NCBI GenBank assembly: GCA_050084515.1
Contig: CM114271.1
Span: forward strand, 31,682,001-31,746,000
Source: Blasia pusilla
Taxonomy: Eukaryota
Length of the DNA stretch: 64,000 nucleotides
Direction of reading: 5' to 3'
Within the stretch, counting starts at the first letter, position 1. Each line of letters starts with the position of its first letter. The notes beneath the pieces were generated by a model. That model saw only the letters and a list, made by a program, of their open reading frames with translations, was not told the DNA's origin and searched no databases. A program made the position numbers and the translations under genes. Positions 13,720-62,893 of this stretch are shown piece by piece.

Positions 13720-14129
13720 CTCATGATAATGATGTTCTCATTCCTATGGTTCCAAATTCTAAACCCATCAATAATAGCATGGATAGTTCATACATTTCCT
13801 CCGATTATGAAACAACTGCAATAGGAACTCTTCGCCGATCCACCCGACTTCAAACTATTAAGCCGCCAAATTAACGCTTACATCTTAATCCACCGAACTC
13901 AAACATAGACCTAGACTAGAAGAGTAATTAGTGAATTTAGTGAGACGGATTAATAAATAGTTATAGCAAACTCTCTTTTTGTTGACTTTTGTAAGAATGT
14001 CATTTTTATGACATTCCTTTTTATAACCTTCTCGCTAATAAAGCAATGATTTTTACATTGAAGGTCAAATTGGTAAGTGTAATTTCTGAGCTCGTGGTCA
14101 AAAATTACACTCACCAATTTTGGAGGTTT

Positions 14130-17100: not shown

Positions 17101-17255
17101 TATTTCTATAGAAGGTCTGATGGTTCAAGTCCAAAATGGAGTTATTAATTTTTGAGGTTTTTCTCACAACTCCATTTTGCTTGAAACTTGGCAAAAGTAG
17201 AACATGCACCTTGGGGACCATGTTGGCGAAATTTTAGCTCAAGATGGGAAAGTTG
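14130..17255. repeat. ~180-bp tandem satellite array, left block (~17 monomers)
   Basis: The motif ccatttttcttgaaactt...cagctcaagatgggaaagttggacaagatgaaaaatgaaaaaacc...ggttcgggtccaaaaagg recurs at 14141, 14321, 14476 (short unit), 14656, 14839, 15018 and onward. Confidence 0.95.
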
Positions 17256-20200
17256 TGTTGGATTCTCAACATCTACTTCTCTGAGCACCATTAATCTGAT
17301 CGGCCCCCTTGTATGAGGAGAAGCCTAGATTGATGGTTCCAACTTAGACGTCGAAGGAGTCATAGTAATATGACATAGGTGTTTTTTGGAGTAGCGTTAC
17401 TAGGATTATCTAACCCTATATTACATCAGGGTGCGAGGCATCCTGATTCAATATAGGGTTAGATAATCCTAGTAAAATATAGGTTTAGATAGGTTAAAAA
17501 TCCTAGTTTTCCGAGTAGTGAAATAGTCGGGAGCCGCAACGGAAGCATATTCTCGTATGAGTGAAAATAGAAATTGACAAAATCACTGAAATCTATCACA
17601 AAACTTGGAGATACAAAGTGGCCTAGTGCATCTGTGCGGTCACAGAAGAGCTTCGATGGAACCTAAACATGGAGATAAATCGACATACGAGAGTGCGCTA
17701 TCGCTACGGCTCCAGAATATTTCACTACTCGAGGAACTAGGGTTTTTAACCTATTTTTCTTTATTTCTATTAATAGAAAAAATGGCTCTTCTGTGAGTGC
17801 ACGGACGGACTATGCCACTTTCTATCTCCAAGATTTGTGATAGATTTGAGTGATTTCATCACATTCTATTTTCTTACATGGTATCAGAGCAGTAAGTTTT
17901 CCAGTATTTTGTATCTAGAGATCTAGTGTGTTTGCACAAATTCCTGAGAGATGGCTACTTCTTCACCCGTTTGTGCTCGCCCTCCTCCATTGGGTGAAGG
18001 GAAGTTAGATGGGTCTAACTATACAGTATGGAAGTTCAAAATGAGAACCGTCCTCAAATCATTTGAGATATGGGAGATGGCCACAGGGGTCAATTCAAAC
18101 CCACAAGCTACTTTGAGTTATGCACATTCATCTTCATCCGGTGACATCGATCTTGTTGTATTTCTGGCGTGGAAACGTAAAAACGTTGATGCTCTTTATG
18201 CGATTGTCACAAATATAACTGATTGTGTCATGACTCTCATTCAACACACAACCACTGTTATTGAGGTGTGGAACATTGTGAAGAATCAATATGAAACCAT
18301 GAATGAGACTCGGATTCAAAATCTGGACAATCAACTTACGTCCGAGAAATTTTTAGAAGGAGAAAGCACGGAGCAATTTTTGAAGAGGATCAAGAATCTT
18401 CAGGATCAGATGGCATCCGTAAGAATTTCAAAGTCTAGCGAAGATTTGGCATGTCGGTGCATAAGGATTTTGCCTCCAAGGTATGACAATTTGGTTACTA
18501 CATTGAATACTCAAGTAAGACCCACGCCACTTACTTTTGAACAATTTAGTACAATGTTGGTAGAAGAGGAAATGCGCTTCAAAGCAAGAGAGGGAAGTGA
18601 TACAGCATTAACTGCCAACGTACAGGGAGGTAGAAATCAGGATTACAGTTCAAATGTCAAGAAGAAATTTCCAAGGAAAGCCTTCAAATCCTTTTATTGT
18701 GGTAAGCTAGGTCATCCTATCAAAGATTGTAGAAAGAGGAGTCAAGATGAGAAGAACCATTGTTTAAGACCTAAGAAGAAGTCTGGAAATTCTGTAGAAC
18801 TAGGAGAACATGAGGTAGATGATTGGGTAGCAATCCAAGAGTTTTGCACATAGGCAGAACATTCCACCAAGTCAAAGAGTGAAGATGCATCTAGGCATAT
18901 GACCAATCATAAGGATTGATGTAGCTCCTTATAGCCTCTGCAAGAGCCCATCGTTATTATTATTCGGAATAGTGAAAAGTGCCCTGTAGAAGGGAAAGGC
19001 TCAATTTCTTTGGTCTCACAAAAAGGAGATGAAGAGAAGTTAACTGATGTATTAGAAGTACTAGAGTTGAAGTGCAATTTGCTTTCAGTAGTAGTATTTT
19101 GTGATCGTGACTTAGAAGTTTGTTTCAAGAAATTTGGAGTAGTCCTTGAGGACGCCAATAGGAAGGTAGTGGGTGAAGGTATACGACGTGGAAATATCTA
19201 TGAGTTGTATGCTTTCACGACAAGTGTAAGTACAGATCTTAGTAGCAATAAGTTGTGGCATGAAAGATTTGGTCACCTAAGCTTTCCCTTACTAAGTCAG
19301 ATGCAGAAATCAGACATGGTTGTTGATTTACCAATAATTTTTGGATTGTCGGATATATGTGAAGCTTGTATGATGGGCAAGCAACACCGACAACCATTTC
19401 CACAAGAATCCAGCAATAGAGCAAAGGCTCCTCTAGAGGTGATACATGCTGACCTCTGTGGTAAAATGAGAACAGTGGCATTAGGTGGTTCTTCCTACTT
19501 CTTTTTAGTTATCGACGATTATAGTAGGAAGATGTGGGTGTATTTCCTTCATGATAAGGCTGGTGATTTTGGAAAATTTAAAGTATGGCACAAGATGGTT
19601 GAGAATGAGAGAGGAAATAAGGTACATAAGCTTTGCATCGATCGAGGAGGAGAATTCTTATCAACAGAATTCAACAAATACTTGGGGGAGCTTGAAATCA
19701 AGCAAGAGTTAACCACAACACATACACCACAACAAAATGGAGTTGTTGAACGTCGAAACTGTACAGTGGTGGAGATGGCAAGATGTATGATGAAAGCGAA
19801 AGGTTTGACAGAAGGTGGGCTGAAGCTGTTAATACTTCCGTTTTTATTCTAAATAGAAGTGCTACCAAGTCAGTGCAAGGCATGACTCCTAATCAAGCAT
19901 ACTCAGGTAAGGTACCCTCAGTCCAACACTTCAAGACTTATGGTAGTGAGTGCTTTGTAGATATTCCTGAAGCATCAAGGACCAAGCTAGAGTCCAAGTG
20001 CAGGAAGTGCATCTTTATGGGATACAATGATGAGTCTAAAGCTTATCAACTATGATGTCCTAAGCCAAAGAATATGCTTATAAGTCGTGATGTGGTGTTC
20101 TAGGAAAAACCTCGTCAAGTGGCGGATTTTTGTGGTCCGTCCATATTATCATCAAACGAAGAGATAACCCACCAGAGCACACCATCAATGTTTACATCGG

Positions 20201-21369: not shown

Positions 21370-23105
21370 AGTTCGATGAGATGAAAAATGAAGAAACCTT
21401 ATTTTGATAGAAGGTCTTATGGTTCGGGTCCAAAAGGACTTGCCACTTTTTGAGCTTGTGGTCTCAACTCCATTTTTCTTGAAACCTATCAAGATTGCTA
21501 GATGCACCTTAAAGACCATTTGGGCCAATTTCAGCTCAAGATGGGAAAGTTAAACAAGATGCAAAATGAGAATTTTGATAGAAGATCTGATGGTTTGGGT
21601 CCAAAAAGGACTTACCAATTTTTGAGCTTGTGGTCCTAACTCCATTTTTCTTGACACTTGGAAAGAGTGCTAGATGCACCTTGGAGACCATGTGGGCAAA
21701 ATATAAGCTCAACAGAGAAAATTTGGACACGATGAAAAATGAAAAGACCTTCCTTTCATTCAAGCTTTAATGGTTTAGGTCCAAAAAGGAGTTATTAATT
21801 TTTGAGGTTCTGCTCGTAACTCCATTTTGCTTGAAACTTGGCAAGAGTGGAACATGCATCTTGGGGATTATGTTTTCCAAAGTTCAGCTCAACATGGGAA
21901 AGTTGGACAAGATAAGAAATGAAAATACGTCCTTTTCATTCAAGGTTTAATGGTTCAGGTCCAAAAAGGAGTTATCTCTTTTTGAGGTTTTACTCACAAC
22001 TCCATTTTCCTTGAAACTTGGCAATAGTGGAACATGTACCTTGGGGAACATGTGGGCCATATTTTAGCTCAAGATGGAAAGGTAAGACAAGATGAAAAGT
22101 AAAAAAACCTTATTTTTATTCAAGGTTTAGGGTTCAGTCCAAAAAAGATTTATTAATTTGTGAGGTTCTGCTCACAACTCAAATTTTTGTGAAACTTGGC
22201 AAGAGTGTAACATGAACTTTGGGAACCATCTTGGCCAAATTTCAGCTCAAGATGGGAGTGTTGGACAAGATGAAAAATGAAAAAATATTTTTTTGGTAGA
22301 AGGTGAATGGTTCGGGTCCAAAAATAAGTTATTAATTTGTGAGGTTTTGCGCACAATTCCATTCTTCTTGCAACTTGGCAAGAGTGGAATGTGGATCTTG
22401 GGGACCATGTTGGCCAAATTTTAGCTTAAGATGGGAAATTTTGACAAGATGAAAAATGAAAAAATCTTATTTTGATAAAAGGTCTAATAGTTCGGGTCCA
22501 AAAAGGACTTGCCAATTTTTGAACTTGTTGTTCCAACTCCATTTTTTTGGAAACTTGTCAAGAGTGTTAGATGAACCTTGAAGACCATGTGGGCCACATT
22601 TCAGCTAAAGATGGAAAATTTGGACAATATGAAAAATGAAAAAAAATTATTTTGATAGAAGGTCTTATGGTTCGGGTCCAAAAGGACTTGCCAATTTTTG
22701 AGCTTGTGGTCCCCCATTCCATTTTTCTTGAAACTTGGCAAGACTTCTTGATGCATCTTGGAAACCATGTGGGCCAAATTTCAGCTCAATATGAGAAATT
22801 TGGACAAGATGAAAAATGAAAAAAACCTTATTTCTACAAAAGGTCTGATGGTTCAGGTCCAAAAAGGACTTAACGAGTTTTGATCTTGTGGTCCCAACTC
22901 CACTTTGCTTGAAACTTGGAAAGAGTGCTAGATGCACCTTGGAGACCATGTGGGCCAAATGTCAGCTCAAGATGGAAAAGTTAAAGATCTTTTTTTCCAT
23001 TCAAGGTTTACGGCTTCGGGTCCAGAAGGTCAATTTTTAAGTTGTGGTCAAAACTTCATTTGGTTTGAGACTTTGCAAGAGTGATAGATGTAGCTTGGGG
23101 ACCAT
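21370..23105. repeat. ~180-bp tandem satellite array, right block (~9-10 monomers)
   Basis: Same monomer as 14130-17255; it resumes in register after the copia TSD. Confidence 0.93.
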
Positions 23106-25079: not shown

Positions 25080-26080
25080 TGTGGGTGGTGCATTGCCATC
25101 AAGAGCGTGGAAAGATATATCGAAAAGGTGATAGTCTTTTTGACCAAGCTTGTCTACAAGCTGGACACTTGTGAGATAGTAGCATGGCCTTTTGAAGACA
25201 ATATGGATGCCAATAACAAGCTTTACATGTACCTCTCACATAGCAACCTTCTACAACAATGGGGTTGAAGCAAATAATGAATTTGGGAAATTTTTTTGGC
25301 GTGAGAGCCCCTCCTTCACTTACTACGATTTCCTTTATCCAATCCAGAAGATCTTGCATTTGTGTGCTTGGATTAAGAGGTATTGGTGGCAACATCATAG
25401 AGGCACAGTTTGCAGTGTTTGGATATATGACACTGTCCCATGTTGCGCGTAGAGCTGGAGGCCACAACTACTCGATACGTTGAAATAAGATCATTTCAAC
25501 CTCCTTCATGAGACAAACCTCAAGTAGAGTTGTCTCGGGGTGAGTTCTCCCACGTTACCCCTTGCTCTCCATCGCAACAGTTCATCCATCTCTTGTTATC
25601 GTCTTGTCATGATGTTCTCGTATGCTCTCCTCCACTGCTCCGTATGGTCAACCATTAGAGCTCTTTGCCTTCTATGGAGGTCATCACTAACAATAGATTC
25701 ATTCAAAAGTCTCTCATCTCTCTCTTCAATCTGATGTGCACCTCATATAGTTGTTCATACTTCCCCTTCAAAACGTTGTATTCCGCGACTAAATCAACAT
25801 TGCGTTGGGAATTTGTCATTAAAATCTACAACTATGATAGATGAGACATTACCTTGCTATTATCCGGAGCATTCTCCCCACAAAAGGTTTGGGGAGGAGC
25901 ACCGTTATGTACATGGAAATCAGAACTCTCCTTGGGCTCATCAAAGCTCGTACTACGACCTACATAGAGGTCATTCAAACCATCTCGTCTATCCTTTTCC
26001 CCCATCTGCACTCGCACTTCATTGATCTCCACTCTTTTCTTTTATATCTTCTTCAACACGATGATTTATTTTTTGACCAT
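25080..26080 (-). pseudogene. Coiled-coil plus RING-finger protein gene (degenerate), probable transposon cargo
   Basis: ORF 25099-25467 contains ICFNPIVVEGCYVRGTCKACYWHPYCLQKAMLLSHKCPACRQAW, a RING-like Cys/His spacing with the first Cys lost. Charged helical sequence upstream is interrupted by stops. Confidence 0.6.
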
Positions 26081-27937
26081 GAAAGGAAGATAGTATGGCT
26101 CTAAGGCTCCTTGAAAATGAGGCGCAGTAAGAGGATAGGAAGAGAGGAAGAGAGGAGAGAGGAAGAAAGGAGAGAGGAGAGAGGATACTACCTTCAACCC
26201 AAAGAGATACAATTTTATGAAGAGAGCTTCCTGTGGTTTGAAGAGAGGAAATTTTTTTAGTGAATATTTTTGCAATTCTTCTGACTCTGCTCAGTCCCTT
26301 CCACATATTTTTTTTCCCTCTTCTCCATTGTGGCAACCCGTTTGAATCCGACAGGTTGCAAGTTGCAAATTTCCAAAAAAAACTTAACAATCATTGGAAT
26401 CAATAATGTGGAAGAAATCACTTTTTCCATCCAAGGTTTCGAACAAATCTATCATTTCGAATAGAGTTCAAGCTCACGATGAACATTTTGGAAATTTAAA
26501 GTACAATGTAAGATCTCATTTTGCATCCTCAAAGTGTTTTGTTTAAAATACTTCGCACTTCTTTGAGGGACAAAATTGGTTGGTGGATTCCTACTCCTAC
26601 CTCCGAATCTCTTAAAACTACAATCAATACATAGTACATGTGCTAACAAGGGAAATATCTTTTCCCAATTGTCTCTCTTTGGACAAAGTCATCATAGGAA
26701 CATGCGGGAAAGCAACAGATGTGTACCACATACACCCCTGTCACACTTGAATTCATAGTGTTGTTCTTGACCCAATACATCCTTCCTATTCCATTGCCAC
26801 TATGAACGTCTTTTGTGGTGATGATTTCCATGTTTGCCTCTCGAGCTTATGCGATTCGCTTTGCTCTCTACACCGTTGGCCTACACATTCTGGTTCTCTT
26901 CACCCCATTTCTTGACTCGAACACAAATAGTGGATTGAGATCATCCACCTTCTGTGGGTACATGTCAATATCAATCTTGGGTTGAATCCAAAATGCAAAG
27001 GTCTCTGTAATGCAAACATGCTCCAAACTCCCTCCGTCTACGAGTCTGAAACCGGCACTTGTAAGATTGTCCACTTCCTTCTGAGTGCAATTGGTACCTA
27101 CAGCAATGGGCCAAATCGTGGAGATATTCCCTGGAGCTCCAATGGCGGCCGGATAAGACTTTCGGAAAGCGCACGATTCATTGGGCAGAAGAAGTACTTC
27201 AATTGATCCGGGGTTGCTTCGAGAAATATGCCACCGCTTGAGGTTGCAATCCACCTCAATGACCAGAATCCCATACTGTTGAACTACCCTCGAGACTGTA
27301 TGGTGGGAAGTTCCAGCAACAGAGGGGTTTTGAAATAAAACATTCATTGCTTTTGCAAAAGATAGGTCAACTCGAATTTGGAAGCAGTCCGGTGTCTCCG
27401 AATACCTGAGCGGGGTAATTTCCTCATCCAAATCAATCATCGGATTCTTTCCTCGATGTGAGGCTTGACTTGCTTGAAGTCAATGTACTTATCAGGTCTC
27501 CAAGAGTCTCGTTCAGACTACTCTACAACCATCTATATGGGACGTCTTGAAACACGCCCACAAATGTCCCCACCAATGTGGACGTATTTCTCGAGAGGAG
27601 ATCCAGCTACGCACCAATTGAAAGCTTCCACATACAATTTCTCATCCCTAGATCTAACAGCAGCTAACATAGAGCTCGTAAATCGAAGGGTCCTTTCCCT
27701 TGGTTACGCCCTAAGTGAGGAAGATGTGGGAGGCTACTGATTGTAGCATTGCTCTTGCCTGGTCTTGTTGGCATGCCTTAACAAGAGATATTTTTTGAGA
27801 TGTATGTGATGATCTCCAAGAGAAATGGACACTCTCGGCTCCGCTTGTGTTGGGAAAGAGGGCGTTTTCGTGAATGTTAAGTCCCTACACACGAAAACTT
27901 ATCAATTGATGGAGGGAACGCCCAAGTGATGAATGCT

Positions 27938-28394
27938 TGCAACCCGTCGAGATCCGATGGGTTGCAAGATTAATTTATCTTGCTTTAAGTAACCTACAAC
28001 CCGTCGAAATCCGACGAGTTATACAATGAACTTTTTTCAGAAAAAATTTGCAACCCGTCAAATTCTAACGGTTTCTAAGATGATTTTTTTTCGCAAAAAA
28101 GTAACTTGCAACGCGTCGCATTGCGACGGGTTGCATGATGAATTTTTTTTGCAAAAAAATGACTTGCAAACCATCGGATTTTGACGGGTTGCATGATCAC
28201 CTTTTCTTTAAAAAAATTGCAACCCGTCGCATTCCGACGTTACTTGATGAACTTTTTTCAAAAAAAATTTGCAACCCCTTGTATTCTGACAGGTTGCATT
28301 GCAAACTTTGTTTGCAAAAGAGACGTAACCTGTCGATTCCGACGAGTTGCTTTACCCACCTAATTTGCAACCCGTACGATTTTGACGGGTTGCA
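27938..28394. repeat. Cluster 1 of the 29-bp palindrome (~9 copies, period mostly ~52-58 bp) inside the transposase intron
   Basis: Copies start at 27938, 27995, 28049, 28107, 28165, 28218, 28270, ~28324 and 28366. Spacers are A/T-rich and related to each other. Confidence 0.9.
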
Positions 28395-28647
28395 ACCTCA
28401 AACTTGGACCATCTACTTGGAAAAAATGGAGAAAAATCACTTGTCGCATAAAGTTTCCCCATTGCCTCATACGGACGGTCCACCAACTGAGCCACGAACA
28501 CAACGAACACATGCTTTCTCCACCACACATGAAGCTCTTCTTGGCACTCCATGGCTTGTTTCAAGGTTTTGCTATCCTTGCAATGTTGAAGTAGAGCTAC
28601 ATGCTCTGTTCTCTTAGTCTCCTTCATGCAGGATTTTGTGTAGCGAG

Positions 28648-31600
28648 TGTGAGAAAACAGAAAGTGACGAAATCACTGAAATCTTTACAAAACTTAGAGA
28701 TACAAAGTGGCCTAGTCTGTCCGTGCGCTCACAGAAGAGCTTAGATGGAATCTGAACATGGAGATAACTCGACATACGAGAATGCGCTACCGCTACGACT
28801 CCCGACTATTTCACTACTCGGGAAACTAGGGTTTTTACCTAATTTTCTTCGTTTCTATTAATAGAAAATTTTTGCACATACACCACGACAAAACCTAGGG
28901 TTAGATAATCCTAGTAACGCTACTCCTGAAACCACCTACGTCATATTACTATGACTCCTTCAACGTCTAAGTCGGAACCATCAATCTAAGCTTCTCCTTA
29001 TACAAGGGGGGATCAGATTAATGGTGCTCAGAGAAGTGGATGTTGAGAATCCAACACCTCCCCTCAATATCCACTCTCATGTGCACTACTATCTTGGACC
29101 TATGCCAGACTTGAGGATGTCGGTGAAGCGATCTCGCTCAAAGCGTCGTGAGATGTCTGCACGGTTATCCTCTGTTGGACAATAGACTAACTTCAAAACC
29201 TCTCTTTCGATCAATTCACGAATAAAATGATACTGGATCTCTATGTGCTTCGTACGAGCATGAAACACAGGATTATGTGCAATGGCAATGCAACTCTGAT
29301 TGTCACACCATATTACAATAGCACTCTCTGGTGCTTCTCCTATGTCCTCCAATAGCCATCTGAACCATACTGCTTCACAAGACGCATAACAAGCCGCCTT
29401 GTACTCTGCCTCGGTAGAAGAAAGATCCACTATAAGTTGCTTCTTGTTGACCCATGATACCACACCTGATCCTACCAAGAAGCAATAACCTGAAATTGAT
29501 CTTCGAGAATCTGAATCTCTTGCCCAATCCGAGTCACAAAAACCTGTCATTTCCGTCCCTGCTCCATAGGTGATGCCGTACTCGATAGTGCCTTTGATGT
29601 ACTTCAACACACATATCCCTGCCTTCTAATGGTTCTCATCAGGCTTAGTTGAGAACCTACTCCCACCGCGAAGCTAATGTTTGCTCTAGTCTTACACAAA
29701 AATATCAAACTGCCTACAGGCTTTCTGTAGAACTTTTCATCTACCAATGGTGAAACATCCTCCATCGAGAGTTTCAACTCTACCTCCATTGGGGAGATCA
29801 CTTCCTTACACTCAATCATCCCGAATGCCTTCAAGATTTCTTTAGCATACTTTTGTTGAGAGAGAAAAATAGAATGTGACTGTTTCCAAATCTCCAGCCC
29901 TATAAAGTAGTGCAAAAGACCTAAATCTGATATTTCAAACTCAGATTTCAACACTCCCTTCATTTCCTCTATTTTCTTACTGTGGTTTCCTGTGATGATA
30001 AGATCATCCACATACAAGACTATCAACATATACATCCCATCTTCGCAAAACACATACAAATTTTCTTCTGACGGACTCTTGATGAGACCCTTCTCTTGGA
30101 AGAATGTATCTATTCCTTGATACCATACCCTTGGGGCTTGCTTCAACCCATACAATGCTTGATGAAGTAAACACACTTTCTCTTCTGATCCGGGTATCTC
30201 AAAACCAGGTGGTTGAGATACATACACCTCCTCCTTCAGACTCCCGTTCAGAAAGGAAGACTTCACATTGTATTGGTATACAAGCCAACGTCTTGTTCGT
30301 GCAACCGCTAGAACAATTCGAATGGTTGTCATACTTGCAGTAGGAGCAAAAGTCTCATAGTAGTCAAAACCTTCGATTTTTTAGCATCCTTGTGCAACCA
30401 ACTACGCTTTGAATTTATCCAATGTACCATCCGACTTGTACTTGGTCTTGTACACCCACTTGGTGCGTATTATCTTCCTGTCCTTTGGCTTCTCAACCAA
30501 AGTCCAAGTTTCATTTTTGTGAATAGCGTCCATCTCTATCTGCATGGCCTCTCTCCATTGAGGATGAGCAAGGGTCTCATCCAAGCATGATGGATCTTCC
30601 ACCTTCAAGACCTCTATCATCAAGGCCATGTTGACGAGATATGCGGAAGCTCTATTTTGCTCCTCTAGTCTCTTGGATCTCCTTGGATGTGTAACAACTT
30701 CATCAGTTGCTGGTGGATCCTTACCATCCAAGAGCTGCTTTATCCACTTAGGGTATGACGACGGTAGTGGAAGAGCAGGTTGCTCTTTATAATCATCACC
30801 AAATTCTTCTTCTTGATGATCTAGTGTAAACATTGGTGGTGTGCTTTAGTGGGTTATCTCTTCGTTTGATGATAATGTGGACGGACCTCTGATTTCCGCC
30901 AATTGACGAGGCAATTCTTGGAACATCACATCACGACTCACAAGCATCTTCTTTGCCTCAGGATACCAAAGGCGATAAGCTTTAGACTCATCACTGTATC
31001 CCATAAAGATGCACTTACTGCTCTTGGACTCACTACAAAGCACTCACTACCAAAAGTCCTGAAATGTTGGACTAATGGTACCTTACTTGAGTATGATTGA
31101 TGAGGAGTCATGCCTTGCACTGACTTGGTAGCACTCCTATTTAGAATGTAAACGGAAGTAGTAACATCTTCAGCCCAAAATCCTTGTGTCAAACCTTTTT
31201 CTTTAATCATACATCTTGCCATCTCCACCATTGTACAGTTTCGACACTCAACAACTCCATTTTGTTGTGGTGTATGTGTCGTGGTTAACTGTTGCTTGAT
31301 TCCATGATCCCCTAAATATTTTTTGAATTCTATTGATAAGAATTCTCCTCCTTGATCGGTGCGAAGCTTTTGTACCTTCTTTCCTGTCTCATTCTCAACC
31401 AGCTTGTGCCATACTTTAAATTTTCCAAAAGCACTTGCCTTATCACGATCACATAATATTGCTACTAAAATCAAATTTTGCTTCAACTCTAGTACGTACA
31501 GTACATCAGTTAACTTCTTTTCATCTTCTTTTTGTGAGACTAAAGAAATTGTGCCTTTCCCTTCTACAGGGCACTTTGCATTATTCCCAACAGTAACAAC

Positions 31601-33126
31601 GATGGGCTCTGAGAGGTGTGAAGGAGCTATACCAATCCTTATGATTGGTCATATGCCTAGATGCTCCACTATCGAGCACCATGCATCTTCACTCTTTGAC
31701 TTAGTGGAATTTTCTGCCTATGTGCAAAACTCTTCAATTGCTACCCAAACATCTACTTCATGTTCTTCTAGTTCTCCAGAATTTCTAGACTCCTTCTTAG
31801 GTCTTAAACAACCGTTCTTCTCATCCTGACTCCTCTTTCTACAATCTTTGATAAGATGACCTAGCTTACCACAATAAAAGCATTTGAAGGTTTTCCTTGG
31901 AAATTTCTTCTTCATATTTGAACTATAATCCTGATTTTTAACTCTCTATACATTGGCAGTAAATGTTGCATCACTTCCCTCTCTTGCTTTGAAGCACATT
32001 TCCTCTTCTACCAACATTGCACTAAATTGTTCAAAAGTAAGCGGTGTGGGTCTTACTTGAGTATTCAATGCAGTGACCAAACTATCATACCTTGGAGGCA
32101 AAATCCTTATGCACCAACGTGCCAAATCTTCACTGGACTTTGAAATTCCCACGGATGCCATATGATCTTGAAGATTTTTTATCCTTGTCAAAAATTGCTC
32201 CACGCTTTCGCCTTCTGAAAATTTCTCAGACGTAAGCTGATTCTCGAGATTTTGAATCCAAGTCTCATTCCTCGTTTCATACTGATTCTTCAGAATTTTC
32301 CACGCCTCAGCAGCAGTGGCTATATGTTGAATGAGAGTCATGACAGAATCAGTTACATTCGTGACAATTGCATATAGAGCATCAGCGTTTTTGCGTTTCC
32401 ATGCCATCAATACAACATGATCGATATTACCAGCTGAAGATGAACATGTAGAACTCAAAGTAGCTTGTGGATTCGAATCGACCCTTGTGGCCGTCTCCGA
32501 GATCTCAAATGATTCGAGGACAGTTCTCATTTTGAACTTCCACAATATATAGTTAGACCTATCTAACTTCCCTTCACCCAGCAAAGCAGGGCGAGCACGA
32601 ACTGGCGAAGAAGTATCCATCTCTAAAGATTTTGTGCAAACACACTAGATCGCTAGATACAAAATACTGGAAAACCTACTACTCTCATACCATGTGAGAA
32701 AATAGAAAGTGACGAAATCACTGAAATCTTTACAGAACTTAGAGATACAAAGTGGCCTAGTCCGTTCGTGCGCTCACAGAAGAGCTTCGATGGAACCTGA
32801 ACATGGAGATAACTCGACATACGAGAATGCGCTACCGCTGCAGCTCTTGACTATTTTACTACTCGGGAAACTAGGGTTTTTACCTATTTTTCTTCATTTC
32901 TATTAATAGAAAAATTAATAGAACTCTATATTAGATTAGGGTGCCCCACACCCTGATGCAATATAGGGTTAGATAATCCTAGTAACGCTACTCTTGAAAC
33001 CACCTACGTCATATTACTATGACTCCTTCAACGTCTAAGTCGGAACCATCAATCTAGGCTTCTCCTCATATAAGGGGGCCGGTCAGATTAATGGTGCTCA
33101 GAGAATTGGATGTTAAGAATCCAACA
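28648..33126 (-). mobile_element. Ty1/copia family A copy 3 (both LTRs present; internal deletion of the GAG-pre-integrase/integrase N-terminus)
   Basis: Perfect TSD GCGAG at 28643-28647 and 33127-33131. LTRs at 32693-33126 and 28648-29056; PBS 32681-32692; PPT 29057-29068. ORFs: gag 31946-32620, integrase 30938-31486, RT 29604-30332, RNase H 29089-29610. Confidence 0.96.
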
Positions 33127-34676
33127 GCGAGTCAGAGACTGTTGCCAATGGAAAGCATCCGATCTTTCCCTTTCCGGTTGAACTTCCCCCAAGAACACTT
33201 CCCTGATCGCAATCCATCCTAGTTGGGCATTGTCCGCCATGAAGCCATATATTTCAGGAGGAAGTCTTTTTTTTCCTTCACCACCTCCAGTAAGAGTAAC
33301 CAACACACCTTCAAGCTGCCAACATCGCTTTCATCTCACAAATAAAAATGGTTTTGAGACCCTTCTTCACATGATCGTAAACGTATGCACCCATGGTCAA
33401 CCATCCATTTAACACCCTGTAGCAAATATCAAAGCTAACCTAGCTCCCAAATATATCTTCTCCCTCCCTCATTCTGTCAATAAGATCGAGGATGCTAGAC
33501 AGGCCTGTAGTAGATATTTTGAAGACATAAGCTCTAGATCCCTCGTTTCCTTAGCCCATGAACTGCCATCTCTGAATGAATGGAAACTGTAAGTTGGCCT
33601 TGATCCTAGAAATAGCATCCATCTCCGAGGTCTTTCCATTAAGTATTCATATTTAACGCAGTAAATTCTTGAAGCTTTCAAGATCAACCAAGAATGCAAG
33701 ATTTTCCCACACTTGCTTCTCCTCAACTGCCATTGGCTAGGGATACCCAGCAGTTGTTCATAAATTTGTGATACAGTTGTCAATTCGATTACTCCTAGCT
33801 TTGATCCTGGAGAATTTTTGTACACCTTGGCCACTTTCTTTGCCACATCCTCCTTGATGTATCTCTTAATCGCACCCGTAACATGATGAGTGTGACACCC
33901 AACATGAATTTTTAGCCTTGTGTACTCAAACGTAGAACTGTAGTCTGGCACTATGAAAAAAATATAAGTCGGACACGCTCTAACACAAAAAGGGTAGGCT
34001 TGACACTTCAGACATCGATGGCCACCCAGCAGTATGGTCCTACCCACGGCGTAAGGAGTTTCTGCATTTTTGGGATGGAATTGGGAAGAATTCACAACTT
34101 TGTTCCTCTCAAGGATGGGGCATCCTGGACTTCTGTACTCTAAGGCTCCAACGCATTGGCAACGAGACACAATCCAAGGACCACCTGGGATTGAAGCGCT
34201 TGTCGGCTGGAGTCTGCACCATCGATTACAGTCCAATTTTTGGTCCACACCCTTCAAGCGACCTCCGTCTTTCTTTTGAGAAGGACCGACAAGTGGAGGC
34301 AGCTCAAAAATGCAGTCTCTAGCATACGTTGCTGGCAGCTCATCAAATCAGAGTGAGATAAAATGTTCTTCGACAATTGCATGAATGTCATGAGGTTGGG
34401 CTTGAATTATCTCTAATTGAGGAAGGCTTGCTAGATGACTGCCACATGTGAGCTTCACATAATTGTCCATTTGGGTGAGATCCAGAATGATTGCCAAGAT
34501 AGAGAATAAGAATGAGAATAAGAATGTTGAGTTTACTGTGAACACTGTCCATTTAAATTATGACAGAATATGTCTGACATATAGTTGGTAGTTAGGTTGA
34601 ACCATCGCCAGGTAACTGCACCTACGAGAAAGGAATATTCGGACATGCTGGATTCGGCAAGCTTCCTTGAACCCGG

Positions 34677-35410
34677 GGAGTTCCCCTTGAGTCGACATTC
34701 CAACCCGTCCGGCTTCCTGGAATGTCGACTCAAGGGGAACTCCAACCCGTCGCAGTCCAATGGGTTGGAAACTGTCAAAAGGGATGTCGACGGAACCAAC
34801 CCTAAACCCTAAACGCATGTCAATGAGTTGAATTGAGTTTGGATGGAACGGTACAACCCATCGGAGTCCGACCGATTGGAATATGAACGGCCTCAAAATG
34901 GCGCTCCCTTAGGCACTCAGTTAGGCAGCCTGGGTTCCGTGCAAGTCGTTGGAGTCTGACAGTTTACACGAATCAAGATGAATGGTCCTTGTGCAAGCCG
35001 TCGGAGTCTGACGGGTTGCAGGAAGTGGAAAAGATGAATGGCCCACGTGCAACCCGTCGGAGTCCGATGGGTTGCACAGGACCCAAGCTGGATGGACCTC
35101 GTGCAGTGTATTGATTTTGATTACGATTTGAAGGGCCGGGGACTGTCTGATTAAAAAAGGTAAAATGCACATCGCCTCCCTCAATTGCCCAGTTTACACC
35201 CTTCCATTGGGTTCTTTTTTCTCTCAGTGCAGTGCGAGGAGACCGGCGGGGGACTTTTTTTATCTGACAGTCCGTCGGGGTCCGTCCGGTTGTAGGAATT
35301 GAGCTGGATGAACCCCGTGCAACCTGTCAAAGTCCAACGGGCTGCTTGTCGGTTCGGCTCTACTGCCCAAGCGTTGCAGAATCAACCTTTCAGGCTCCGA
35401 TGGGTTGCAG
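34677..35410. repeat. Cluster 2 of the 29-bp palindrome in the divergent intergenic region, plus a perfect 26-bp inverted repeat (34677-34702 / 34718-34743)
   Basis: Copies at 34741, 34852, 34940, 34992 and 35048, with degenerate ones at ~35265-35410. Confidence 0.85.
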
Positions 35411-35757
35411 GCAGACCACACAGAACATGCACCGTAACGCTCCATCATCATATAACCGGTTCCCCGTCGTACACCAACGGTCGAATCCAACAGCTCTGAA
35501 AGTATATAAGGACCAATTTCGAGGCTTTTCACTTTTCCATTCTACACTTTTCCGCGTTTTTTCCAACTCCCCCGTTCACACGACTACTAAATCTGACTTT
35601 CCAGTTACTCAGACATTTAGATGGTTGGTCGTTGTCTTTTCATTTGGGGGCTACAACAGTTAGTGACGACGGTTTGAGTTGATCAATTCTTTTCAGAGGA
35701 AACCATGATTGAGGTCAAAACCCTTTGCGCAACGTTCGATTCTGGACTTATTTCAGG

Positions 35758-38112
35758 ATGAATAAAAAAAAAAGCCAAGCCAGCAAGGTCAGGAGCTTCT
35801 CGCCCAAGTCTGGCGGAACTCCGTCTTCTGTAACGCAGCGCGCCCGTATATGTAAAGCAAGAGAAAATCGAGCAGTGCGAGCGGAAACCAAAATGAGGAA
35901 GCATGAAATGTTGGCAAAACTATCTCTAGAGAAACTCGCGAAGCAAGAGGAGAAGCGAGAAGTGAAATTGCTTACGAATGCGGAGAAGGCCGAGAAGAAA
36001 CGCATGGTGGCAGAGATCAAGCACAAAAAGGCTAGACGTCGCCTTTCAGAAAGCTGAATTGGCAAAAGTCAAGAAGGAAAAGGCAATCACTATAGAAGAA
36101 GAACCCTCCCTACGACCCACCGAGAGTGTGGAAATGGAGGATGTGTCATCCATGAGGTCAAGTGGTCCAATGCACGAGACCAACACCGACGAGCTTCCCG
36201 AGACCAACAAGGAGGTTGTTAGAACCCCGAGTGTCGAGATCATGGAGATCTCAGAAGGAGAAGGAGAAGAATCTTCTGCATCTCAGAAGCCTGTTGAAGA
36301 ATTTGATCTCTTCAAAATTGAAGAGTTTCCAGTAGACTTGCTGGAGTAGGCTCCAGAGCAGCTTCGCTGAACTTGATACGGCCCAGTTTTTTAGCGGATA
36401 AGCATTGTTCTATAGTTCTCTCTGCATTGTATCAGTGCCAATCATTTGGAAAATTTGAATTCACAATGTGACATTCTTGCAAGTGGTGAAGCAAATGGCC
36501 TTGGTGGATGGCCCGAATGCCCCGAGGATGCCTCTTTTCTGACTCCAAACGATGGAATACGTCAGAGAAATCCAATCGGAGGAAGACATTGACAAGTTGA
36601 AGCGGTCTGTGGCAATAGCTTCATACGTTGATAGCTTCCCACCTTTCTATGTTCAACCGTATGATGAGCATGGAACCCAGGCTTTGGTAACGGAGGAAGA
36701 TCTGGAGAGTATCGATGCTTTTTTAAGGCTGAGGGACCTGGAGTTCCGGAAGGTAGTGGCAAGAACCCAGTACAAGTGGATACAAAACTGGTATTTTTTA
36801 ATTTGGGATGGCAACCTCCGATTCAAGGCGTGGTTGCAGTTTGCAACAGAGCGTCCAAACTCCCTTGAGGCTCACTTCTACGTGAGGGCGGTGGTCCTCC
36901 TTCCCTACCCGAATCACATGGCCATGGTGGAAATGGCCATGCACTCCATGAACACGTAAGTATCCTAAATCTTTTCTTCATGAAAATGAACCGTTTTTGA
37001 CTCATCGTACTCAAGAATCAAGTCATCATTAACAATAGCTGCAACCCGTCGAAAGGTGACGGGTTGCGGGAGGAAGAACTTGCTGGCGTATTTGCAATCC
37101 GTGGGACTCTAACGAATTCCTTTTGGCCGTCTATTGAGTTGCCTAGCAACTCGTTGGAGTCCGACGGGTTGCACAATCTCAAGTGTGGCCATCCCACTAG
37201 GACAGGGCCTACAACCCGTCAGAGTCCGACGGGTTGCAGTTTCAGGAGAGGGCGTGGTTTGAGTGGCCGATCATGCAACCCGTCGGACTCCGACGGGATG
37301 CATAATCTTTACAAAAGGAGTCTTGCTTGGGGCTGCTGTGCAACCAGTTGGTCTCCGACGGATTGCAAAGCCACGTAGACCCAGACCTTCTGCAAAGAAC
37401 ATTCAACCCGTTGGACTCCGACGGGTTGCAAAACCACTCAAACCAGGCCCTATCCTACCTCATATGCAACCCGTCGGACTCCGATGGGTTGCAAACCACT
37501 CGACCAGGGTTTTTCCAACCGCATATGCAACCCGTCGGAGTCTAACGGATTGCAGGGCTAGTCAAACTTGGCTATCTGCACTACAATTTGTGCAACTGGT
37601 CGGACTCTGACGGGTTGCAAGTGAAAAAACTATCGTCAAAATCCTGAACCCGGATGCAAACATAAAATCCGATGTGGGTGGCTTTGCAAACCGTCAGTTT
37701 CCGACGGATTGAATTTTTGAATTTACTGTACTCGAGGTGCTTTCCGATAGACTCTGACGAGGTGCAACCCAACCCCGGATGGTCCCGGATGCAAATCGTC
37801 AATTTCCAACAGATTGCAGGGAATAAGATTTTGGAGCAACCCATCGGACTCCAACGGGTTGCAAATAGTTGTCGTTTAGTTCATATGCTTCCAACCTGTC
37901 AGAAATCGACGAGTTGCTAGTTGTAAATTTTCTTACTTCTCATTGATGTTTGCAGCATTGTGTCCGAAGGGAATGTTACCCATCAGTGGATCCAGGAATG
38001 CGACCGAGTGAGGAAGGTTCTTACAACGCATCCGTCGCAATACAAAGGAATCCTCGGAATTCAAACATGGAATAGTATTGATTGGATGGGATATTTCAAG
38101 CATTTTGCATGA
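35758..38112 (+). pseudogene. Spliced gene with a basic/acidic low-complexity N-terminus and a ParB/sulfiredoxin-like domain; intron 36956-37955
   Basis: ORF 36552-36959 has YFLIWDGNLRFKAW, matching the ParB/Srx xxDGxHR signature with H>L. The donor ac|GTAAG at 36956 and acceptor TTTGCAG|c at 37955 give the in-frame continuation TIVSEGNVTHQWIQECDRVRKVLTTHPSQYKGILG. Upstream there is a frameshift and stops. Confidence 0.6.
37040..37918. repeat. Cluster 3: regularly interspaced 29-bp palindromic repeats (~15 copies; core of 8 copies with 32-36-nt spacers) inside the ParB-like gene intron
   Basis: Core repeats start at 37145, 37210, 37274, 37339, 37402, 37465, 37526 and 37591. The consensus TGCAACCCGTCGGA(C/G)TCCGACGGGTTGCA is a 14+1+14 palindrome. 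Confidence 0.93.
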
Positions 38113-50773: not shown

Positions 50774-53700
50774 TGTGAGAATTGCGGAATGAATTGAAAT
50801 TGCGTTTGTACTCTCTGTGTTTTCTATATTGATAGATTGAAAGTCGATAAGTAGTAAAGTCTGCTCTAAACTAAGAGCTGTAATCAAAAGACATGACAGT
50901 AACTGTGTCACTTCATAAATGTCTCATAGCTACGTATCGTTTCGCAAGATGAAACGTTACTAGCAGTAATCAATGGTCATAAACAAAACATTGATCCTAA
51001 TCTAATCTAGATTGTCCGTATGGATTGATCCGTGGGATCAATTCTTGGATCAGTACTCTAATGATTTGTTTCGCTGGACTAATTGATTTCCTACACTCCT
51101 ACTCAGGGGAACAAATCAGCCATTTTCATTACTAGTTAAACCTAGAGATTTAGTATGTTTTTTATGAGGTCCTTTCTGTAAACCCTTAGTAAAAATGTCT
51201 GCAGTCATCGCTGCAGTTGAAATATAGGTCAAAATAATTTCGCCACTTGATACTTGATCTTTGATAAAGTGGTATTGAATGTCGATGTGTTTGGTGTGGT
51301 CATGATGTTTTGTAAAACTGACCAAAGCAATAGCACTCTGGTTGTCACAGAAGATCTTAATTATCTTCTGAGCAAAATCAATTTCGTAAAGTAATCTTCT
51401 GATCCAAATAGCTTGAGCTAGTTTTAGTCATTGCAATGTACTCGGACTCGGTACTTGAAAGAGCAACTAACTTTTGTTTTCTACTTGCCCAACTAATCTT
51501 GCTCCTCCTGCAGGAGAAAGCAAAATCCGCTAGTAGATTTTAGAGTCGATATTGTCTCCATAGGCGACATCGAGAATATCCTTGAAGATGAAAAAGGAGT
51601 AGATGAGCGCAGATATTGGAGAAAGTAATGTTTTGTCCCTTGTAGATACCTGAAAATACGTTTGACAGCAGTCCAGTGTATAGGACCATGATTGGTCATG
51701 AACTGTGCAACAATGCTAACAGAATAGGCAATATCGGGGCGAGTGCACACCATTGCCCACATTAAACTTCCTGTAGCACTTTTATAAGGAATAGAAGACA
51801 TTGTTGCAATGTCAGCAAGATGAACAGGAGATTGATCTTGACTAAGATGAAAGCCAAAATCAAAGGGAGTGGAGATAGGTTTGCAGCCCAACATGTAGAA
51901 CTGTTTGAGTTTGTTGGTGATGTAAGTCGTCTGGTTGAGCCTGATCCATCCTTGTTTTCGGTCTCGTTGGATATGAATTCCCAGAACATGATAAGCTTCA
52001 CCGAGATCAGTCATTTCAAACTCTTGGCGGAGCTTCTTTTTGACAAAATGAAGCAGCACAGAACTAGAGCTGGCGATGATAGCGTCATCTACGTAGAGAG
52101 CAAGGTTCAGAAAATTGGAGTCCTTGTTCAGAATGTGAATATTAGAGGTAGCAGTGGTGCTGACAAAACCAATGTCGAGTAAAACATAGTGACAGCGTTC
52201 ATACCACATACGGGCTGATTGCTTCAAACCATAAATGGACCTTTCGAGAAGGCAGACCAAGTTACTATGGGGAACTGGCAAGCCTGGAGGAAGGGCCTTG
52301 TAGATCTTGTGTTGCAGGAATCCATATAGAAAAGCAGCGATTACATCTAATTGATGCACTAGCGACAGCAATAAGAATACGAAGAGATTGAAGTTTAATA
52401 GTAAGAGAAAAGGTCTCGTCGTAATCAAGATCAGGAACTTGAGTAAATCCTTTAGCAACCAGACGGGCTTTCTACTTGTGGATCGTGCCATCCACATGAG
52501 GTTTAATTTAAAAAACCCAACGGCAGCCAACTATGCTTTGATTAGGAGGAAGGGGAACCAAAGTCCAAGCCTTCATTCTAGTCATATTCTGAAGTTCAGC
52601 AGAAATGGCAGCCTTCAAATGTGAAGAGTCAAGTCCAGAGATAGCCTCTTCATAAGATTGGGGTTCAAGAAAAGAACAAGTAGAAGAGAGCAAGGCCCAA
52701 CGCTTCTCTGCAGCTCGCTTCTTGTTCTTCTCAGCTTCAATAAGTGCATCGTAACGCTCAATAGCCCGAGTAATGCGAGGACTTTTTCTTGAGCAAGAGG
52801 AGGAGAAGGAGCTCGTTGTCTTCTATCATAGTAAAGATGGGTACGCCTATGACCAGGTACGGGGTGTGCAGTGGAAGAGACCGTTGGTGAAGGCATATCA
52901 TCTGGCTGTGGCAGACTTGAAAGAGGTTGAACTTCCACTGAAGAAGACATGGAAGGAGAGGTGGTTCCCACTGAGGGAATAATCGGGGAAGTAGCAGGAA
53001 TAGGCAAGGAAGTTTGAGGATTAGGGAATGAGCGGAAAAATAGAGGATCAGATCTGATAGCCAGATCTTCTGCATCAAAAGAAGCGAAAGATGGAGTGGT
53101 CTAAGTAGTCTGATCTTCAAGAACTACAGCATCACGGGAGAGAATGATAGTTTTGTCTCTCAGCCTCTCGAGACGCAAGGCTTTGCTTTGGCACTGTAAC
53201 CAGGGAAAATGCATTCCTCAGTGCGAAAATCCAGCTTTGAATGAGGATCATTGATTTTAGCAAATGCAGGGCTTTCAAAAATACGAAGATAAGATAACAC
53301 AGGTTTACGATTAAACCATAACTCATATGGTGTTTTGGAAAGTGGCAATGCTTTGCTCGAAAGACAATTTTGCAAATAATTAGTAGTGACAAAAGCTTCA
53401 CCCCAATAAGTCTTGGGGAGAGTAGAATGGAAAAGCAAAGAACGGACAGAATAAGCAAGAGTTCTCTTCTTACGTTTTGAAACACCATTTTGCTGTGGTG
53501 TGTGGGGAGCAGTGAACTGCCTGGAGATTCCTTGAGAATGGCAGAAGTCTAAGAAAGAAGATGACTTAATTCCCCACCATTATCATATCCCAATGTCTGA
53601 ATGCGTCGAGGTTGATGTTGTGTCTCTACATTAGCCACAAATTGAGTGAAACGGGAAAAACCTTCAAATTTGTAATGGAGGAGGTAAACAGTAGTATACC

Positions 53701-55937
53701 GGGAGAAATCGTCAATAAAGACCATGAAATAACGAAAACCCAAATGAGTAGGGGGAGAAATAGGCGTGCAAATATCTGTATGAATTAATTCTAAAACATT
53801 GAGAGCTCTATAGACTGGAGTAGTGTTAGAAAAAGGTTTGTGAGTCTGCTTGCCATGTAGGCAGGCTCGACATGAAGAAATCTGAGAGGGATTATGCCGT
53901 GGAAGTCCGACAGCCATTTGCTAATTTTGAAGTTGAGGAACACGAGCGGCGCTGATGTGACTCAAACGGTGATGCCACAGATCAGCAATCGTGGGAAGAA
54001 TCGCAGTGGCTGCTGTAATGGGAGAAAATCGGGAGGGTGGAAGGGCAGCTTCTTTGAGTTTGTACAAATCATTGATTAAATAACATGTTATGATGATCTG
54101 GTCTGTACAATCATGGAGTATGCACTTTCCGTTGTGAATCAAGGTAGATCCTCCAGAAGTGTCTTAGTTGCTAGACTGAGAAAAGATTTTTCTTCAAGCT
54201 TGGTATAAAGAGGACATTCCAAAGAATGTATCGAATACCATTAGCCAAAAGGATCTCAACGTGTCCAGATCCTTTTATCTCCAGACTAGAGTTATCACCT
54301 AGGAAAACATACAAAGATTTTTCATACGGAGTGTAATTGGAAAAGTAATCACTGGAGAAGGCCATATGATGAGTAGCACCGGTATCAAGATACCATGTAT
54401 TATCTTGCATATCTAAAGCCGAAGTTGAATAGGCAACGGTAAAGAAGAGATGAGACGTAAAATTTGCTTTTGGAGCAGACAATCTGGACTGCATTTGCTG
54501 ATCTGCAAGACGTTTTCCGAAATCTTTAATATGATGCCCTTGCAAATTGCACTAGAAACACATGATTTTTTTATAAGTGTTCTGCTGATTGGAGGATGAA
54601 GCCTACCAATCAGCTTGATGATTGGACGATTCGCCATGTGGAATCGTCATAGAAGCAGGAACAAATCTTGATTTGAAAGGACCAAAGCCTTTGTGAGGAG
54701 CTTTGCCTCGACTGTAACTTCTGAATGAGCCCCCTTGCATCGAATTGCCAAATTAGGACTTCGATTGAAAAGGGGCAGAACCTCGTCCAACAAAAAAAGT
54801 TGAGGACGGTTCAGCAGTCTATGTCTTCATCATTTTCTCCTCCTTAAGAAGGAAAGTGATCACAGATTGCAAAGTAAGATTACTCTAACCTCGCAATGAG
54901 GTCAATAAGTTGCGGTAACTATTGGGCATTGATCGCATCAATGCAAGATACTGATTTTCATCAGAAGTCATTGATCCAGCAGCGTGGAGTTGATCAATCA
55001 ATGTCCTAAACTGATGGACATATTTGGTAACACTATTTCCTTCTTTCATCTTAAGAGTCTGTAGATACATTTCTGTGACACCGTCCTGGGCTTGGTATAA
55101 AGAATCTAATGTCGTCCAGGCTTCATTTGCGCAATCGAAAGGAGGCGATATGATGAACTTGCAAATTGTCTAAACGATTTGCTATGAAGGATAAGGCAAT
55201 TCGGATGAGAATCTCCCATTCGTGGACACTCCCAGCGCCAGTGGCAGGAGCGGTAGTCGGTGCTGGATTTGGAGTTGTTCCTTCTACGATGCCTACTAAA
55301 TCTTCGGAATCAAGGTACAATCTCATGCGTAATTTCCAGATATAGAAATAGGTTCCGTCAAATTTCGGGATGTCGTCAATCTTGAGGAACATGTTAGAAT
55401 TCACCATCGTGAATTGATGAAAATGATAGAAAACGGGTCAAGGACTTCAAATTCGTAAGAATCGGAAGTTTGCAACCACCAAGCAATGAGAAAAGAGAAA
55501 GGCGTTTGAGCAGAAGACGTCCCCTCTACTCTAGGAATGTTGAAGCATCCCTCAAATTCCAATCCTTTCTTGAAAATCGTAAAAGTAGTGACTAGCGACC
55601 ATCTGATACCATGTGAGAATTGGGGAATGAATTGAAATTGCGTTTGTACTCTCTGTGTTCTCTATATTGATAGATTGAAAGTCGATACATAAGTAGTAAA
55701 GTCTGGTCTAAACTAAGAGCCGTAATCAAAAGACGTGACAGTAACTGTGTCACTTCATAAATGTCTCATAGCTACGTATCGTTTCGCAAGATGAAACGTT
55801 ATTAGCAGTAATCAATGGTCATAAACAGAACATTGATCCTAATCTAATCTAGATTGTCCGTATGGATTGATCCGTGGGATCAATTCTTGGATCAGTACTG
55901 TAATGATTTGTTTCGCTGGACTAATTGATTTCCTACA
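50774..55937 (-). mobile_element. Ty1/copia family C, full-length with two similar LTRs, ORF disrupted
   Basis: Perfect TSD GTGAT. LTRs at 55612-55937 and 50774-51095 differ by about 8 substitutions and one 4-bp indel (manual count). PBS tggtatcaga. Coding fragments: gag KFDGTYFYIWK, protease LDTGAT, integrase LELIHTDIC, RT LYVDDA, RNase H TKHIDIQYHF. Confidence 0.95.
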
Positions 55938-62667: not shown

Positions 62668-62893
62668 CTAACCTGAGTGGTTGCTATTGAGATGTCTCTC
62701 TACTGCTGCTAACCTGAGTGGCTGCTATTGAGATGTCTGTCTACTGCTGCTAACCTGAGTGGTTGCTACTGAGATGTCTGTCTACTGCTGCTAGCCGGAG
62801 TGGTTGCTATTGAGATGTCTGTCTACTGCTGCTAACCGAGTGGTTGCTATTGAGATGTCAGTTTACTGCTGCTAACCTGAGTGGTTGCTATTG
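62668..62893 (+). repeat. 41-bp tandem repeat (~5.5 copies) within the family D LTR
   Basis: The unit ctaacctgagtggttgctattgagatgtctgtctactgctg starts at 62668, 62709, 62750, 62791, 62832 and 62872. Confidence 0.9.

Follow-up and report, generated by a model that had tools for sequence, protein, structure and literature searches.

Arrays of a shared 29-bp palindrome in a Mutator-like transposon of Blasia pusilla: candidate dyad protein-binding sites

Regular arrays of palindromic repeats separated by spacers of near-constant length call to mind CRISPR (clustered regularly interspaced short palindromic repeats), and the question raised here is what such an array may be doing inside a eukaryotic transposon. 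The DNA analysed, referred to as the window, is a 64,000-nt stretch of the Blasia pusilla genome (NCBI GenBank assembly GCA_050084515.1, contig CM114271.1, positions 31,682,001 to 31,746,000 of the forward strand), and all coordinates are positions within it. A previous reading of the letters alone, the original prediction, drew attention to an array at 37040-37918 within a transposon gene and offered several interpretations, including CRISPR-like geometry, a source of hairpin RNAs and a set of dyad binding sites. The last of these fits best: with moderate confidence, and from features of the sequence, this array and two related ones are considered to be cis-acting dyad protein-binding sites of a Mutator-like element (MULE), a class of DNA transposon.

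The repeated unit is a 29-bp palindrome composed of two 12-nt arms, TGCAACCCGTCG and CGACGGGTTGCA, around a 5-nt centre. The 29-mer consensus, with up to three mismatches allowed, has ten matches in the window, of which eight fall within 37145-37863 and the others are at 34992 and 35048, and under the same limit none was found in 100 dinucleotide shuffles (0/100). A search with the two 12-nt arms, any 5-nt centre and at most three substitutions per arm recovered 25 copies over the window, 13 at 37040-37918, five at 34741-35346, six at 27938-28394 and one at 26332, to which a repeat search adds a few further degenerate copies. Half-site matches number 51/56 within 26.3-37.9 kb and 5/56 in the remaining 52 kb, the null from 20 shuffles being 1-13 matches per window. 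Three arrays and a lone copy therefore share one palindrome, and the observation is larger than first noted, as array 1 (27937-28395), array 2 (34741-35409), the lone copy (26332-26360) and an inverted pair of spacers in array 3 (37040-37918) had all been missed. The lone copy, which has no strand, carries four substitutions relative to the arms and lies downstream of the 3' end of a transposase-like gene. All of the copies are inside one element of roughly 7.4 kb, interrupted by a nested copia retrotransposon. A metagenome scan for the palindrome gave two loci only, each a single palindrome in a high-GC, bacterial-looking contig, and these were judged unrelated. Titles and abstracts found with the arm sequences and with MULE/liverwort and ParB-like terms contain no description of the palindrome or of such arrays in bryophyte-type MULEs, and the matches to 11-mer arms are, by title and abstract, to unrelated primers.

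Array 3 has no strand and holds 14 palindrome copies, eight of which are regular, with a period of 61-65 bp. The regular copies start at 37145, 37210, 37274, 37339, 37402, 37465, 37526 and 37591, and are separated by spacers of 36, 35, 36, 34, 34, 32 and 36 nt; the coordinates (37145-37619) and all seven lengths had been given exactly, and spacer length is held at 32-36 nt across seven consecutive units. About seven degenerate flanking copies had also been proposed, and six full ones are present (37040, 37093, 37685, 37790, 37835 and 37890), the seventh being a half site at 37750. As originally claimed, the repeats are far better conserved than the spacers, with a mean pairwise identity of 0.83 among the eight core copies and 0.75 among all 14, whereas the spacers average 0.41 against a shuffled null of 0.413 (standard deviation 0.006). 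The 14-nt flanks of the palindromes, compared in the same or inverted sense, give z values of -0.2 to 1.6. Tandem Repeats Finder reports a tandem repeat only at 37339-37554 (period 63, 3.5 copies, 76% matches), which fits mostly unrelated spacers.

Individual spacers nevertheless retain traces of their history. In all-pairs local comparisons, made in both orientations with the 99% level of the null as cut-off, 3/156 array 3 comparisons were above this level. The spacers at 37431 and 37494, in which a shared motif had correctly been noticed, are direct duplicates (local score 24); those at 37239 and 37431 are inverted duplicates (37239-37273 against 37434-37456, 91% over 23 nt); and those at 37174 and 37431 have a weak inverted similarity. 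Apart from the inverted pair, comparison of the array 3 spacers with the rest of the window gave chance-level matches of 10-15 nt only. The inverted pair shows that units of the array can flip, which is expected if recombination takes place between palindromes, since each palindrome is its own inverted repeat.

Array 1 (no strand) consists of about nine palindrome copies with a period of 52-58 bp and A/T-rich spacers that are still alike. The array fills a gap of approximately 515 bp (about 27897-28412) between two transposase exons, and thus occupies a putative intron. Here 19/42 spacer comparisons were above the 99% null, with flank z values of 8.1 and 4.8. Spacers that align to each other as well as the repeats do, which the original prediction associated with a simple decayed minisatellite, are not a property of array 3, although in array 1 the spacers are indeed alike. 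Array 2 (no strand) has about seven palindrome copies between divergent genes, is split by a 241-bp insert (35077-35317) and is followed just downstream by a TATA-like box near 35504. Between arrays, 0/382 spacer comparisons exceeded the 99% null, so that the palindrome is the only thing common to the three.

Array 2 also shows signs of local rearrangement. Adjacent pieces of about 70 bp within its insert (35107-35176 and 35176-35247) match the interiors of two contigs from a presumed-RNA run, with 2 and 0 differences respectively; these contigs have depths of 3860 and 35 and diverge from the window on both sides, and the pieces look like captured host or organelle fragments in the style of Pack-MULEs or filler DNA. 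No Rfam family was found in the 241-bp insert. At the left edge of the array, 34677-34743 consists of an inverted repeat whose 26-bp arms match perfectly around a 15-nt loop, and the loop and next bases resemble palindrome half sites. Perfect arms in an otherwise eroded element suggest that a foldback or a repair took place recently.

Multiple copies of the element are present in the source species. At an identity of at least 80%, 967, 509 and 711 contigs from three DNA runs could be placed on the element, with all 30 bins covered. Across the palindromes and spacers of array 3, contigs of other copies are about 82-85% identical to the window and have at most one gap, for example over 37016-37237 (40 differences) and 37212-37469 (38 differences). 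The spacers of array 3 are thus common to other genomic copies, ruling out CRISPR-like acquisition. Further arrays elsewhere in the genome contain the same palindrome with a different, conserved spacer of 22-24 nt. Contigs of other copies diverge from the window around 38230, about 300 bp past the end of array 3. Only nine contigs of the presumed-RNA run could be placed on the element, none of them on array 3. Variants in array length suggested by contig joints (e.g. 36964 to 37274) were not used, as the sides of these joints are only 21 nt and may be cross-matches between palindromes.

The protein-coding content of the element points to the Mutator superfamily. The nested Ty1/copia long terminal repeat (LTR) retrotransposon occupies 28648-33126 on the minus strand, is recognised by LTR pairs and by gag and RVT_2 Pfam matches, and stands outside the palindrome system. 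An intact target duplication of 5 bp (GCGAG, 28643-28647 and 33127-33131) flanks it, and its paired LTR stretches (224 nt and 131 nt) are 92-93% identical, implying that the host element was already inactive some time ago. The transposase-like gene, on the minus strand, lies on both sides of this insertion. In tblastn with 68 homologous proteins its segments are 34344-33745, 33730-33461, 33637-33326 and 33246-33127 and, beyond copia, 27881-27672 and 27185-26541. An N-terminal exon (33745-34347) encodes a Cys/His-rich domain, and exons of the putative catalytic-core region (33127-33637) align to residues 422-596 of the homologue P0065. The exon at 27672-27881 aligns to residues 313-381 of P0003 (E 3e-9) and includes a ...GAESVH... 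stretch, which we take to be the catalytic-E region of MULE/hAT-type enzymes, while the C-terminal exon or exons (26541-27185) align to residues 524-735 of P0013 (E 1e-25). Another exon, 28604-28518, has a weak alignment to residues 610-638 of P0065 (E 0.028, single comparison).

At a cut-off of E<=1e-3, 64 proteins are related to the open reading frame (ORF) at 33469-34347 (minus strand), with an E of 1.4e-16 and an identity of about 30% for the closest of them. Eight of these homologues were looked up, and comprise six hypothetical proteins of the liverwort Riccia sorocarpa, one protein of the liverwort Calypogeia fissa and one unnamed assembly product; P0013, among those from Riccia sorocarpa, bears the UniRef name of SWIM-type domain protein. 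Atlas language-model features of P0065 place it with MULE/SWIM families in 10/10 of the best named clusters (scores 0.87-0.93), and motif patterns in P0065 and in the 27672-27881 translation are presumably MULE-like. The P0065 features, the SWIM annotation and the fold of the N-terminal domain are three lines that point to the Mutator superfamily, and the plant transposon setting of the original prediction is borne out.

Mutator-type transposases usually bind DNA through an N-terminal WRKY/GCM1 zinc finger. An AlphaFold2 (AF2) model of the N-terminal exon, built from a 51-row alignment of the window ORF and the 50 of the 68 proteins that cover the domain, reached a predicted local distance difference test score (pLDDT) of 91.7. 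Structural alignment of this model placed only WRKY or GCM domains in the first seven rows (Z 5.0-7.4), ahead of an unrelated structure with a Z of 4.4. The best of the seven is 2ayd (Z 7.4, root-mean-square deviation 3.4, 76/76 residues aligned), and the rows include the W-box DNA-bound 7z0u_A (Z 6.7) and the DNA-bound GCM domain 1odh_A (Z 6.5, 121 residues aligned). Z values below 8 are modest, and the weight lies in the agreement of seven rows and in full coverage of the target domains. Foldseek gave weak E-values, with 1odh_A the best at 0.015 and a probability of 0.98 for 2ayd. On the evidence of the model, the N-terminal domain is a WRKY/GCM1-type zinc finger, with a predicted sequence-specific DNA-binding fold.

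A second, accessory gene (gene 2) is encoded on the plus strand, divergently from the transposase-like gene. Its upstream exons (35706-36955) include a K/E-rich N-terminal part and a 138-aa exon at 36543-36955, and its last exon (37956-38112) comprises 51 codons followed by a stop codon. The segments at 35713-36057 and 35966-36349 are in different frames, which means that the gene is broken or that its model is not settled. The interval between, 36956-37955, is a putative GT-AG intron of 1000 bp with in-phase open frames on both sides, and is filled by array 3. The original prediction had described this intron and had assigned it to a ParB-like gene; the intron stands, as a putative one, but the ParB label does not. 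None of the gene 2 ORFs matches a Pfam family at E<=0.1, PF02195 (ParB_N) included, and no homologue was found among 327 longer or 20 similar-length candidates. A phmmer search of the PDB gave ribosomal protein eS10 only (E 0.85), and the PHROGs gave only a family of unknown function (E 0.058). In the Atlas, 3/30 matches fall in a set with 32% ParB_N members, and the shared features number 126, where true family matches typically have 170; this weak language-model lead is what the ParB label comes down to. The AF2 model of the exon from its single sequence is unusable (pLDDT 40.2). The exon also aligns to P0065 with 15/56 identities, at an E of 0.004 as a single comparison and 0.12 in the 68-protein set, which is too weak to use; it is a lead, as weak as that to ParB, that gene 2 might derive from a transposase.

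The state of the palindromes provides information on the history of this copy. The alignment used comprised 30 palindromes, namely the 25 from the two-arm search and five more degenerate ones, with a frame-shifted copy at 28326 excluded. These differ from the consensus at 131/840 positions; C>T or G>A accounts for 76 of the changes and T>C or A>G for only 6, and the context is CpG for 45. Such an excess of C>T and G>A is the signature of methylated-cytosine deamination, suggesting that the copy was silenced and is eroding. By its sequence, this copy is dead, the element having been broken by copia and its palindromes eroded by C>T and G>A changes. At approximately 16% divergence per site from the consensus, spacers that had once been identical should, by our arithmetic, remain about 70% alike. 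The array 3 spacers are at the random level, which argues that they differed already in the active ancestor while the palindromes were uniform. The arms of the palindromes pair in 81.4% of cells, compared with 81.0% in shuffles, and double-change arm pairs number 4 against 5.2 in shuffles. The arms therefore change independently, and nothing indicates selection on a hairpin.

Taken as binding sites, the palindrome copies would have been amplified into the non-coding parts of the element, namely the intron of the transposase gene, the region between the divergent promoters and the intron of the accessory gene. An element-encoded protein would probably bind the palindromes, with one dimer or two monomers on each, and the candidate binders are the transposase, via its predicted WRKY/GCM1 zinc finger, or the product of gene 2. 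The high density of sites could then lead to family-specific recruitment over the whole element, and this recruitment may result in self-activation or anti-silencing, as with VANC on VANDAL21, and possibly in transposase loading too. The arrays would grow and change by tandem duplication, inversion between palindromes and deletion, and selection in an active lineage would keep the palindrome and roughly the spacing, not the spacers. Old amplification with constraint on the palindrome, as originally suggested, is a better fit than spacer acquisition, given that the spacers are common to other copies.

The closest known arrangement is found in Arabidopsis. In VANDAL21, VANC21 localises to non-coding regions, where YAGTATTAY motifs are tandemly repeated ahead of VANA21 and within introns of VANC21 and VANB21 (PMC5735166), and motif repeats have been gained and lost between copies (PMC5735166, PMC10398659). 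The present element resembles VANDAL21 and VANDAL6 in being a multi-gene Mutator-type element with a family-specific motif in tandem in the introns of two genes and in an upstream region; in VANDAL, the number and content of repeats likewise vary between copies (PMC5735166, PMC10398659). The differences are that the motif here is a 29-bp palindrome and that of VANDAL21 the 9-bp YAGTATTAY, that spacers are fully diverged in one array, that gene 2 belongs to no detectable family and nothing VANC-like was recognised, no direct comparison with VANC sequences having been made, and that the nearest protein relatives are in liverworts and not in Brassicaceae. The comparison is one of layout, which in this element is read from sequence, whereas VANC binding and hypomethylation belong to VANDAL. 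Within these terms the layout of the arrays, in two introns and a shared promoter, is of a kind already known from Arabidopsis VANDAL, with a different motif, protein and host lineage, and the analogy drawn by the original prediction is apt. According to a 2026 preprint, the Mutator transposase AtMu1 can itself activate cognate copies (10.64898/2026.08.24.746577), so that either the transposase or gene 2 could read the arrays.

Several observations weigh against this interpretation. The MULE assignment has no Pfam match behind it: PF10551 is absent from the window ORFs (E<=0.1) and from 13 homologues (10 scanned at E<=0.01 and five at E<=5), and Pfam SWIM was not matched in the window ORFs or the scanned homologues, from which it follows that the family is very divergent. 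MULEs are characterised by terminal inverted repeats and a target duplication of 8-10 bp, and neither terminal inverted repeats nor element ends were found here (blastn of 22.0-27.95 against 37.9-46.0 kb gave a CT-rich simple repeat only). VANDAL-type MULEs are, to our knowledge, without long terminal inverted repeats. The invariant columns in the palindrome fall at A/T or non-CpG positions; mutation bias thus contributes to conservation within this copy, and selection has to be argued from a comparison of the arrays rather than from this copy. Finally, array 1, in which the spacers are similar, retains the character of an ordinary tandem repeat of 57 bp.

This last point favours an explanation without function, in which the arrays are neutral internal minisatellites with a 52-65-bp unit, produced by slippage or unequal crossing-over, and the palindrome would owe its apparent conservation solely to the tendency of such sequences to drive duplication, inversion and conversion of themselves. 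DNA transposons often contain tandem repeats, array 1 is by its flank and spacer similarities simply one of these, and array 3 retains one direct and one inverted duplicated spacer pair. However, the array 3 spacers are at the shuffled level while the repeats are not, and the three arrays, together with the further arrays in the genome, share the palindrome only. Moreover, conversion through hairpins should keep the arms complementary, yet their pairing is that of the shuffled control. Neutral minisatellites are consequently unlikely.

A second explanation is that the arrays are subterminal repeats that load transposase for transposition itself, in the manner of the 12-bp repeats of Muta1, and are not regulatory; the TnpA sites of En/Spm are similar transposase-loading repeats. 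The predicted DNA-binding zinc finger of the transposase would suit such a role, and array 3 ends about 300 bp before the divergence of contigs around 38230. Muta1, a MULE of mosquitoes, has nine subterminal repeats of 12 bp that enhance the binding of transposase as well as cleavage and excision, and a terminal palindrome is also important for binding (PMC5499845). The likeness to Muta1 and to foldback-type elements lies in arrays of short repeats with a palindromic pattern, cooperative transposase binding being a feature of Muta1 (PMC5499845). The Muta1 repeats, as described there, are 3-4 bp apart and inside 145-bp terminal inverted repeats (PMC5499845), whereas the sites here are 29-bp dyads, 52-65 bp apart and internal, in introns and a promoter and not at termini. 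Array 2 is central, between two genes, array 1 is about 1.6 kb inward of the lone copy at 26332, and blastn of the flanks revealed no terminal inverted repeats joining the two sides. A loading role on its own is therefore decidedly unlikely.

It had also been suggested that the array is a source of structured RNA, the intronic palindromes forming hairpins or 29-bp duplexes that are diced to small RNAs silencing or tuning the family. The array folds far better than its shuffles (-258.8 kcal/mol, z -16), but this is a trivial consequence of the palindromes, and the C>T/G>A decay, from which the copy was probably methylated, is compatible with silencing of this kind. The lack of compensatory change between the arms speaks against it, as do the seven Rfam matches at 26.0-39.0 kb (E<=1), which are all far below the gathering threshold (the best 36.8 bits versus 144), and array 2, which lies upstream of a promoter and is not obviously transcribed. 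A 14-bp stem is, in addition, short for dicing. With neither arm covariation nor an Rfam family at threshold, an RNA source is very unlikely.

A more speculative version of the binding-site explanation is that a self-recognition system evolved here separately from VANC. In bacterial ParB-parS and plasmid centromere arrays, palindromic sites, sometimes in tandem, are bound by a dimeric protein encoded adjacently. The accessory protein without a family, possibly of a ParB/Srx-like or transposase-derived fold, might similarly bind parS-like dyads, coat the element as ParB spreads and exclude silencing. The ParB-likeness of gene 2 is an unconfirmed Atlas lead, and the setting, unlike that of ParB-parS, is eukaryotic; we consider this separate system a long shot. 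An adaptive array with spacers acquired from invaders is refuted, the resemblance to CRISPR being a superficial one of geometry (29-bp palindromic repeats with 32-36-nt spacers) in a eukaryotic transposon with introns, copia elements and a MULE-like gene, with no Cas family match in the 17 ORFs scanned (24.4-44.9 kb), as the original prediction had also noted, with repeats only 75-83% identical, and with spacers inherited by other copies and, for some of them, duplicated within the array in direct or inverted orientation.

To date, the use of motif arrays for sequence-specific anti-silencing has been elucidated in Arabidopsis VANDAL elements and, more recently, in Spm. If the palindromes are dyad binding sites, a very divergent MULE-like element with its nearest protein relatives in liverworts and the same layout would be a second case in which to ask how general this strategy is in the superfamily. 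Were a separate self-recognition system to be the correct version, anti-silencing by motif arrays would appear as an ancient and recurrent strategy of Mutator-type elements across land plants and not as a peculiarity of Brassicaceae. The long dyad motif is an easy target in vitro, and the question it poses is which protein reads the arrays. Should the arrays be neutral, the region would still be a clean example of palindromes shaping the turnover of arrays by duplication and inversion.

The remainder of the window contains a number of other features. Just beyond the lone palindrome, an ORF at 25099-25467 (minus strand) has a weak match to zf-RING_2 (E 9.5e-4, 19.8 bits, cutoff 27.3). Two more copies of the same copia family are located at about 8.9-13.7 kb and 17.6-21.4 kb, and beside them are large arrays of an approximately 180-bp satellite at 14046-17275 and 21395-23105, with up to 27 copies listed at 60-92% identity. 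A direct repeat pair at 50847-51095 and 55689-55937 (249 bp, 98% identical, 4.8 kb apart) probably represents the LTRs of a younger retrotransposon, and a second repeat pair, 88% identical, is present at 44742 and 49250. A tandem array at 62656-62900 has a 41-bp period and about six units.

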